Positions 51,001 to 54,000 of a DNA stretch of 64,000 nucleotides are shown here, piece after piece. A program made the position numbers. Within the stretch, counting starts at the first letter, position 1; each line of letters starts with the position of its first letter. The stretch lies in NCBI RefSeq assembly GCF_057098645.1, contig NZ_CM169472.1. One strand, written 5' to 3'.

Positions 51001-54000
51001 CTGAGCAGACGTGAGCGTTCCGCACGAGATACATGGTAAGTCGCGGTCTCTTTCTCTGATGAAGGCGTTTACGGCTTGTTGGGCTTGTTTAATCCAGTAA
51101 CTGCGGGGCTTTAAGGCGAGTTTTTGAATCTTAAGTTTATCTTTCTGTTTCTGCTCCTCTCGTCGTCGTTTCTTCTCTGCTGCTTTTTCCGCTTTTTCGC
51201 GTTCTTTACTTCGTCGTTCGAGTGCTATCTTGGTTCCACAAATCTCATTACACAAATATTGATTTTGATATTTTGGTATAAACCATTCATTGCAACATTT
51301 ACATTTCCTTCGATAGATTCGCATAAGTGCTCCTTTCGTTGCCGGAAAAATCACCGTAATACTTATCTCGGGCTTCTTCAGCAACTAGTACCGCTAACTC
51401 CAGATCATCAAAGCATCCGAAGTGTTTACTCTTTCCATGGAATCCTAGCCTAACATTCCATTTTTTCTGTCGTTTGTGCCAAGTAACCCCTCTGCAACCT
51501 GATTTGCTATTCTTTCGGATCCTTATATTTCTTGAATTTTCTATTGGCAGGCATTCTCTTAAATTTTCTGGCCTATTGTCGGTCCTAATTCCATTAACGT
51601 GGTCAATTTGACCAGCAGGCCAACGATTATGAGTTATGTAAAAAACTAAGACGTGAGTTTTATATCTACGCCCATCTATCATGATCATTGAATAACCGTT
51701 GGAATCAAAAGTTCCAGCAACACTATTTAATGCTATCCTTCCCTGAGTGGGAACTTTCCATCTAAATACCCCGGTAGATTTATCGAAACTTAGTAACTCA
51801 AATATCCTTTTAACAGTTAAATCTTCTCTTTTACGGTTACATCGTCTTCGCGCTGGTTTAGCCATCGCCTTCTTCCTCCGTAATGGTTTTCTGAATTTGG
51901 CCACCTGAACAGAGCTCACCAAAGCTATGGATGTCGGTATTTCCACAATACCAAGATGGCGAAAATAACTGCATGATAAGCCTCAGGGAAAAGGGAAGAC
52001 ACTACCCCCGATAATTCAGAAACAAATCGAAATACATGAACTAAAGAAAAAATCACAACAAATAGAAACAGAAATAGAAATAGAAATAGAAATATTAAAA
52101 CAGACCACCACATTCCTGATGTCATACTCACTAAACAATTTTTCGACAACATGGTTGCTCATAGCATGTTATCGTGTAGACACCCTCTGCTACGTATTCG
52201 GTGTTCAGTGCAATATCTACAAATACTGGAAAAATCTAAAATCGAGGCAAGTTTTTAGTGATAACTATAGTTAGACTATATTGACGACCTGATGTGCTGT
52301 ATGTAATAATTAACAAAAAATATTTTCCATGGGATTTTTTATTTTAATGAAATGCAAAATATTTTTATCAATAGTTAGTATTATGGAAAACCATTAATTC
52401 AGGAGGAAACTTGATTCCAAATTCAACTTCAAATAAAGGTTATGTATGCATTGACATGCAGTGTTCGTCAACCTCTGAACCAACAGCTTCTACCTCCAGC
52501 AACCGGAGTATTAAATTAGCCGCTTCCACAAATGTATATCCGATAACAAGAAACGACTCCGAGCTCACTCTGAACGATTTTCTTGATAATAGCTCTTCTA
52601 CGTCATCATTGGACTACATTAATGAATTGGGTTCTCAACTGACGTTAAATGATTTTCTTGACAACATAAAGACAAATGAGGTGGATGGAACATGTACGGA
52701 TGTGGTAATTAATATCCCACAAGAGATACAAACAAATACACAGGAAAATGATTTGTTATTATCCGATAAAAATAATTCAATATGCATTGAAATCGATGAA
52801 AGAATTACAAAAATCCTAACATGCAAGCAAAAATATCAACTGGACAGCATCATTCATGAAATTATACCAAAAGAGAATGAGAGTGCAGAAACTGTTCTCC
52901 ATCTTATGAGAGTTCTGAACGATCAATATCATCAGGTATATAATCAGTCAGGATGTTTTTATAAAGCCTATATGGCCATACACAATAAAATCGAACAGAT
53001 ACTTCCATATGCGTTCAGAGCCGGAGGCGGAATCAGCATTCACTTGCTCATACAGGCATTATTTTTTAATGGCGACTATAACAAATCACCTTCACAGTCT
53101 CAACAACCATCTTTATATACATCACCTTCTCCAACAATAAATACAGAAGCATTCTTAAGTAATGTATTATCACTAGATATAACCCAGGTACGCATACTTG
53201 GTGATTTACTATCAGCAACTTTATTTCATGCACCAACAATATTCTATCAATATCCTAAACTAATAGATGAAGTTAAGTATTGTATAAGTAATAAAAAAAT
53301 AACAGGTTCGGTTATAGCACGATTTACTCTATGTTTAACAAGTACATTACTAACCATGTCACCACTGTTAATGCTTAATGGAGCAGTTAAAACAGGTAGC
53401 ATAGTAAGAACTATAGGTAGGGGAGTGAGTTATGCTGATATACCATTGGCCTTAGCTATATTAGGTGACTCATGGTATAAAGCTTATAAACATGGTTCTT
53501 CTGATAACCCAAATTCTGCTCAGAGATTTATATCGCAAGAAGCGGCCTTTAAAACCACCCAGCGGGTATTAACACAAGGATTAAGTCTGATGTCCTCTTT
53601 ATCGGGAGCAATCATGCGCTCTCTTGAGAAAGGCACACCACCACAAATGATGTCTTTATTCATCGTAAACATACTAAATCTATTATTTCATCAAAATCCA
53701 TATGAAGGGGCATCAGCAAGTGCTAATGCTTTGAAAAGATCAACTTACTCCCATAATCCGGACATACTAAATACTCAGGCAATAGCTCTTTGTGTTGACC
53801 TCCAGCATACAAAAAATATAACCATGCCACTTTTCAAAACAAAAGACAGGATATCCTACGCATTCAATGGACAAAGAACATCCCCAGAAGACCAAAAACA
53901 AATACTGAAAGAAGTTATAAACTCCTGTACCCAAGGAGAAAGAGCCATTTTAAATACATCACAATCAGAAACATGCAAACATAAAATCGATGAGATTTAT

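Follow-up and report, generated by a model that had tools for sequence, protein, structure and literature searches.

Architecture of the locus

A hexanucleotide repeat was examined in a 64,000-nucleotide stretch of contig NZ_CM169472.1 (NCBI RefSeq assembly GCF_057098645.1), referred to below as the window. The window is a lambdoid prophage with its early-right operon on the minus strand, and the repeat, a tandem array of the unit AAATAG, sits in the nin region of this prophage, which resembles a Shiga toxin 1 (Stx1) phage and has no stx gene in the window. Because an HNH endonuclease gene on the minus strand and a 590-amino-acid (aa) open reading frame (ORF) on the plus strand flank it, the repeat occupies a divergent intergenic region. 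The features at the locus are as follows.

51299–51865, minus strand: HNH (HNH_3 + AP2) endonuclease gene, divergent from the 590-aa ORF
52047–52052: poly-A tract adjoining the repeat, A6 in the window
52060–52095: hexanucleotide variable-number tandem repeat (VNTR) of six units, namely AAATAG, AAACAG, three further AAATAG and a degenerate terminal AAATAT
52096–52108: right flank TAAAACAGACCAC, uninterrupted in the window; in the canonical locus of Escherichia coli O157 the insertion sequence IS30 follows directly after the base equivalent to 52108
52411–54183, plus strand: 590-aa ORFan with a TTG start and a strong Shine–Dalgarno sequence, AGGAGG, at 52400–52405, in AT-rich DNA (28–37% GC)

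Tandem Repeats Finder (TRF) delimited the array as 52060–52094, with a period of 6, 5.8 copies, 93% matches and a score of 63, and direct reading gave the units AAATAG, AAACAG, AAATAG, AAATAG, AAATAG and AAATA(T). The period-6 local self-match score was 44, whereas 200 simulated 64-kb sequences, matched in composition to the local AT-rich region, reached 24 at most. The dimer AAATAGAAATAG, allowing at most one mismatch, occurred five times where 0.2 occurrences were expected, and all five were within the array. From the array end at 52094 to the TTG start of the 590-aa ORF at 52411 the distance was 317 bp, and on the other side about 195 bp separated the array from the ATG of the HNH endonuclease gene. 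The preliminary description of this DNA had put about six AAATAG units some 320 bp upstream of the ORF, which agrees with the 5.8 units and 317 bp measured here.

Identity with a published typing marker

We found that the locus is already known. Judged by its repeat unit, flanks and primer sites, the array is the IS30-free form of the long-known E. coli marker TR1/Vhec4/O157-9/VNTR-9 of multiple-locus VNTR analysis (MLVA), a published marker that the preliminary description did not recognise. The names reportedly go back to Noller in 2003 (TR1), Lindstedt in 2003 (Vhec4), Keys in 2005 (O157-9) and Hyytia-Trees in 2006 together with PulseNet (VNTR-9). All four are synonyms (PMC3768571, PMC3321953). 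For TR1 the unit AAATAG and the forward primer ACTGCATGATAAGCCTCAGG have been published (Table 2, PMC2246123), and the TRF consensus AAATAG was identical to the published unit. The forward primer of VNTR-9 (O157-9) is GCGCTGGTTTAGCCATCGCCTTCTTCC (PMC3321953, PMC8461963). The exact sites of these primers in the window are the following.

51850–51876, plus strand: VNTR-9 forward primer GCGCTGGTTTAGCCATCGCCTTCTTCC, spanning the start codon of the HNH gene
51968–51987, plus strand: TR1 forward primer ACTGCATGATAAGCCTCAGG

Both published reverse primers were absent from the window at up to three mismatches. A misprint in the TR1 reverse primer (PMC2246123) was suspected for this absence, and the suspicion was rejected because the primer lies in IS30. 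The canonical arrangement was seen in the IMG/VR contigs L036 and L037, where the left flank and the array are followed by TAAAACAGACCAC and then at once by the IS30 end TGTAGATTCAATTGG; this IS30, 13 bp to the right of the array, contains both reverse primers. These two contigs were 99% identical to the window over 50061–52094 and homology was lost exactly there. On this comparison the window copy is an IS30-free allele or paralogue of the locus and not the amplifiable O157 copy. It would yield no MLVA product, that is, it would be scored as a ‘null allele’, because the IS30 with the reverse primers is absent.

The canonical O157 locus and the window thus share the AAATAG unit, about 2 kb of left flank at 99% identity, the 13-bp right flank, the same module beside HNH–ninG and the same whole-unit length polymorphism. 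They differ in that an IS30 breaks up the canonical locus 13 bp beyond the right end of the array, whereas in the window the sequence runs uninterrupted into the 590-aa ORF. Furthermore, the window copy is located in an stx-negative lambdoid prophage, whereas in O157 genomes the IS30-free form is found in an Stx1 prophage. Some form of the locus was carried by 523 of 5426 complete E. coli genomes, with the intact form in 245, and O157 genomes had up to two copies, with both forms occurring. Another candidate for the MLVA locus, H82, was rejected as an unrelated IS30 copy. In a set of 202 German O157 strains, null alleles of VNTR-9 made up 31.7% (PMC3321953), a high rate that can be attributed to the existence of the locus in IS30-interrupted and intact forms.

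Variation in unit number and its likely origin

The unit number was compared across 36 copies of the locus, comprising the window, L001 and 34 IMG/VR contigs, and was found to range from 5 to 17 units in 12 length classes. When the two Stx1 phages AU6Stx1 (8 units) and SH2026Stx1 (18 units) were included, the range over 38 copies became 5–18. Among the 60 best-matching complete genomes, the span exceeded that of the window by 0, 5, 6, 7, 8, 9, 10 or 13 units. Length differences were seen between very close relatives: the O111:H8 strains 08-4347 and 08-4455 had 11 and 12 units between identical flanks (3092 + 3235 bp, 6.3 kb), and the cattle strains 144 and 150 had 14 and 13 units, likewise within 6.3 kb of identical flanks. 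The neighbouring 1773-nt ORF differed by at most 10 nt among its intact, non-frameshifted copies. The interrupting units AAACAG, AAATGG and AAGTAG kept near the 5′ end of the array, and the length changes were confined to the pure run. The poly-A tract beside the VNTR was also variable in length, being A5, A6 or A7 among otherwise near-identical loci. These observations accord with published data, in which VNTR-9 had 6–23 repeats and 15 alleles in the German O157 strains, with a diversity index of 0.90 (PMC3321953), and in which Vhec4 mutated at about 1.3e-4 in serial passage by single-unit insertions, or roughly 1e-4 per generation (PMC3777172). The preliminary description had proposed that unit number be compared among isolates, and had taken invariance as an argument against phase-variable expression; because the number does vary (5–18 in 38 copies), invariance is excluded and that argument falls away. 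The alternative offered at the same time, an AT-rich low-complexity relic, is not quite right, as the array is actively mutating and not decayed.

The best reading, and one that we regard as highly probable, is that the array is a hexanucleotide microsatellite in an intergenic spacer of the prophage, selectively neutral and still slipping actively. Whole 6-bp units would be gained and lost through slipped-strand mispairing at replication; slippage is suggested because the whole-unit changes are confined to the pure run, which is the pattern expected of this process. In all likelihood the array itself serves no function, and it would persist as slippage keeps homogenising its units, with length being selectively neutral in the intergenic spacer. 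Since it is short and interrupted, with six units and a longest pure run of three plus a partial unit, the allele in the window is expected to be among the more stable ones. Several points weigh against this reading. We infer the lack of function from sequence, and the promoter scan described below relied on consensus matching, which is unreliable in AT-rich DNA. The array may yet prove to be part of a 5′ untranslated region (UTR) or to sit between distant regulatory sites, and slippage is argued from the allele pattern together with general knowledge of microsatellites. The evidence makes neutrality the economical reading without proving it.

Prophage-borne 6-bp VNTRs, STTR6 for example, are used in the MLVA of Salmonella Typhimurium. 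Loci of the STTR6 type resemble the array in being hexanucleotide VNTRs on a lambdoid prophage that serve as epidemiological markers only and give null alleles if the prophage or the flank is absent. They differ from it in sequence, host and prophage, and no homology is implied.

Possible effects on transcription of the flanking genes

The preliminary description had raised the possibility that the repeat mediates phase-variable expression of the 590-aa ORF. Put as a mechanism, this idea holds that the array is a contingency locus or rheostat: changes in unit number would alter how strongly the 590-aa ORF, or the divergent HNH gene, is transcribed, either because an upstream site and a promoter are set at another distance or helical phase (6 bp being about 0.57 turn) or because the 5′ UTR becomes longer or shorter. 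The array is hypermutable, it lies in a divergent intergenic position at 317 bp and about 195 bp from the two start codons, and the region is AT-rich (30% GC), the kind of DNA that is bound by nucleoid proteins, all of which would suit such a role. The promoter scan returned a single passing site.

52281–52310, plus strand: candidate sigma-70-like site TTGACG-18-AATAAT, TG-extended, matching the consensus at 10/12 positions

The site begins 187 bp past the end of the array, with about 100 bp between it and the ORF, and from its sequence it is probably the likeliest promoter of the 590-aa ORF. A laxer scan (at least 8/12) added a minus-strand site at 52371–52341 and several 8/12 matches. Neither the tool's scan nor the laxer one found a sigma-70-like hexamer pair overlapping or bracketing the array, and a promoter within or around the array was rejected because both scans lacked an overlapping site. 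In favour of the rheostat is a weak candidate promoter, TCGAAA-15-AAAAAT (8/12), which ends at 52053 and has the variable poly-A as its −10 element; the array would then begin the transcript.

Stronger evidence against the rheostat came from loci in which the gene is damaged. In the canonical O157 locus IS30 severs the ORF and its promoter region from the array, yet the polymorphism of the array there was no lower (PMC3321953), and it was also high in O111:H8 genomes with a frameshift-split ORF. The unit numbers formed a broad continuous spread without clear on/off classes or a parity pattern, in samples that were not independent. Genomic contexts were available for three homologues of the ORF, and two of these were scanned for an upstream repeat; no tandem repeat was found upstream of these two distant homologues (L038 and L039; 50% and 30% identity), of which 130–350 bp of upstream DNA could be inspected. 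A literature search also found no report of a phenotype. We therefore consider the rheostat unlikely on these grounds, and the phase-variable expression suggested earlier is left without support, the array lying outside the candidate promoters and varying where the ORF is severed or frameshifted.

A related proposal is that the VNTR is a contingency element of Stx1-type lambdoid phages, tuning either transcription of the ORFan or the HNH gene or the read-through from the early promoter pR to the antiterminator gene Q. Established examples of contingency repeats are the 7-bp repeats of Haemophilus influenzae hmw1A/hmw2A, the TA repeats of hif and the TAAA repeats of Neisseria meningitidis nadA. 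Like the array in the window, these are hypermutable non-coding repeats upstream of genes that change by slippage. They lie inside a promoter or between a promoter and operator sites, and expression depends on their unit number. Unlike them, the array in the window has its nearest plausible promoter about 190 bp away and is equally variable where the gene is gone. When the locus was set against what characterises contingency loci, a hypermutable simple-sequence repeat was present; consensus scans, the only type of scan used here, did not place it within or abutting a promoter, and an association of repeat and gene across homologues was not seen in the two contexts scanned. We regard the proposal as quite improbable. 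If it were true, MLVA alleles would carry phenotypic meaning, for moron expression or for the timing of induction and toxin production, and would not be neutral.

A possible element of the early transcript

The array might instead act at the RNA level, with the tract in the early (pR) phage transcript loading Rho or causing pausing and so tuning read-through to Q and thereby late or Stx expression. Because transcription through the nin region proceeds on the minus strand, along the gene order from ren to Q, the array would appear in this transcript as an unstructured, G-free (CUAUUU)n just upstream of HNH–ninG–Q. The predicted properties of the RNA are compatible with this: the minus-strand RNA of the intergenic region had no significant structure (z = +1.1, if anything below the shuffles), the repeat was unpaired in the centroid, and the tract lacks G and has a single C in every 6 nt. 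Folding of either DNA strand of the array likewise gave about 0 kcal/mol, without structure. Nothing in the intergenic region reached the Rfam gathering score; a permissive Rfam scan gave one match, to SmY, whose 16.7 bits (E 0.6) fall short of the gathering score of 39 and which was taken as chance. Rho utilisation (rut) sites are typically C-rich, but the tract is U-rich with 17% C. In addition, N-modified transcription would ignore such a site, and Rho could already enter at many points in the 2.8 kb of untranslated antisense RNA that lie upstream. There was no covariation or conservation signal beyond near-identical sequences, and the idea is pure inference. It must be regarded as very unlikely.

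Minus-strand reading frames over the repeat

The last alternative is that the array is coding and specifies a stretch of LF or IS dipeptides in a small minus-strand protein. Two ORFs overlie the repeat.

51925–52152, minus strand: artefact ORF in the LFLF frame, arising from translation of the repeat
52016–52162, minus strand: artefact ORF in the ISIS frame

CTATTT repeats contain no stop codon in any minus-strand frame, and a gain or loss of 6 bp leaves the frame unchanged, which is why ORF callers pick them up. RefSeq carries coding sequences (CDSs) of this kind, WP_001430471.1 for example, in strains with 12–14 units, and the published MLVA table places the locus inside ORF Z3935/Z3936 (PMC3321953). 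No conserved product results, however, because the A5–A7 variants of the poly-A tract swap or fuse the LFLF and ISIS frames, with the result that N- and C-terminus are not conserved as a pair. When IS30 is present, the minus-strand ORF starts inside IS30 DNA and has an unrelated N-terminus. The ISIS frame is annotated by RefSeq only at 12 or more units and is then entered under a separate accession for every length (WP_001430471.1, WP_001450693.1 and WP_001428177.1); at 11 units, in L043, RefSeq has no CDS over the repeat. The repeat-derived ISISIS CDSs that we located, from alleles of 12, 13 and 14 units, lie at 6217–6399 in L001, 3049–3231 in L044, 3049–3243 in L045 and 3049–3237 in L046. 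These length-specific hypothetical proteins are a systematic annotation artefact, and the entry ‘inside ORF Z3935/Z3936’ reflects the same translation artefact. The array thus leads annotation pipelines to create a series of spurious ‘hypothetical proteins’, each specific to one repeat length. The predicted product is of low complexity, and a real small protein was rejected since start, stop and flanking residues are not conserved across alleles, making a coding repeat extremely improbable and upholding the earlier view of the LFLF ORF as a translation artefact.

The 590-aa ORF

The ORF downstream of the array had no match in Pfam, NCBIfam or PADLOC. It belongs to PHROG 9230, a family of unknown function, and only 15 representatives were found in 1.84 billion proteins, every database cluster being named ‘hypothetical protein’. 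A PDB sequence profile search with the ORF returned nothing. Its AlphaFold (AF2) model had a pLDDT (predicted local distance difference test) score of 65, with a disordered N-terminus (residues 1–127) rich in Ser, Thr and Asn and an all-helical body, and a Foldseek search of the PDB with this model gave no match (best E = 0.59). The ORF was split by a frameshift in the O111:H8 genomes and in three IMG/VR loci. Distant homologues (30–50% identity) were found elsewhere: the one in L038 is located beside an AraC/ExsA-like regulator, and the one in L039 downstream of a fimbrial usher of the TcfC/CooC type. None of these results gives a reason to expect phase variation of the ORF.

Prophage surroundings

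The minus-strand order in the prophage is ren–ninB–methylase–ninE–[island]–HNH–ninG–(ninH or phosphatase)–Q. In the window, ninG, a Ser/Thr phosphatase gene and Q follow beyond the HNH gene, and then a tRNA-Met and a NanS-p-type esterase. The AT-rich stretch (28–37% GC) carries the 590-aa ORF on the strand opposite to the early operon. In O157 strain 644-PT8 and the phages AU6Stx1 and SH2026Stx1, Q and stx1 come immediately after the same module. Further features are listed below.

46176–48026: NanS-p-type SASA esterase
48167–48333: small RNA STnc100
49186–49261: tRNA-Met
49575–50063: Q antiterminator
54866–55393: N6-adenine methylase; ninE is also present
57722–58660: replication protein O, with iterons

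The interval 46176–50063 shares the layout of Stx phages, and the segment between Q and the esterase contains no stx genes. Inside the O gene, iteron-like repeats of the TCCCTC-N-GAGGGA type (about 20 bp in 3.8 copies) occupy 58236–58313 and presumably mark the phage origin.

The AT-rich insert is 2.8 kb in size, consists of the 590-aa ORFan and spacers, and occupies the position of ninF, with the array near its left edge. A 46-bp segment around the start of the HNH gene (51837–51882) is shared with the ninF/ninG junction of several lambdoid phages, HK544, mEp234 and ST104 among them. The N-terminus of the HNH/AP2 endonuclease reads MAKPARRRC, and the ninG downstream of it in the window has a different start (MRIYRRKCK...). 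The arrangement suggests that the HNH gene entered at the original 5′ end of ninG and captured it, and that the AT-rich island has replaced ninF.

Elsewhere in the window, a second tandem repeat was seen at 35887–36641 (162 bp in 4.7 copies, 94% matches, TRF score 1293), inside a minus-strand 461-aa ORF (35421–36806). Pfam gave weak whole-protein matches only for this ORF (TetR_C_35, FliG_N and DUF4244), with no single stretch significant. Rfam matches in the window were an OrzO-P antitoxin RNA of a type I toxin–antitoxin system (3083–3158) and an ALIL pseudoknot, a frameshift signal of the IS3 family (62626–62742).

Implications

If the unit number affected expression of the ORFan or read-through to Q, the typing marker would gain biological meaning; nothing points in this direction. 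The repeat has been a routine marker for the epidemiological typing of E. coli O157 for two decades, and as it stands the finding of this copy matters little. The existence of two forms of the locus, one interrupted by IS30 and one intact, both of which may occur in O157 genomes, is relevant for MLVA carried out in silico from assemblies.

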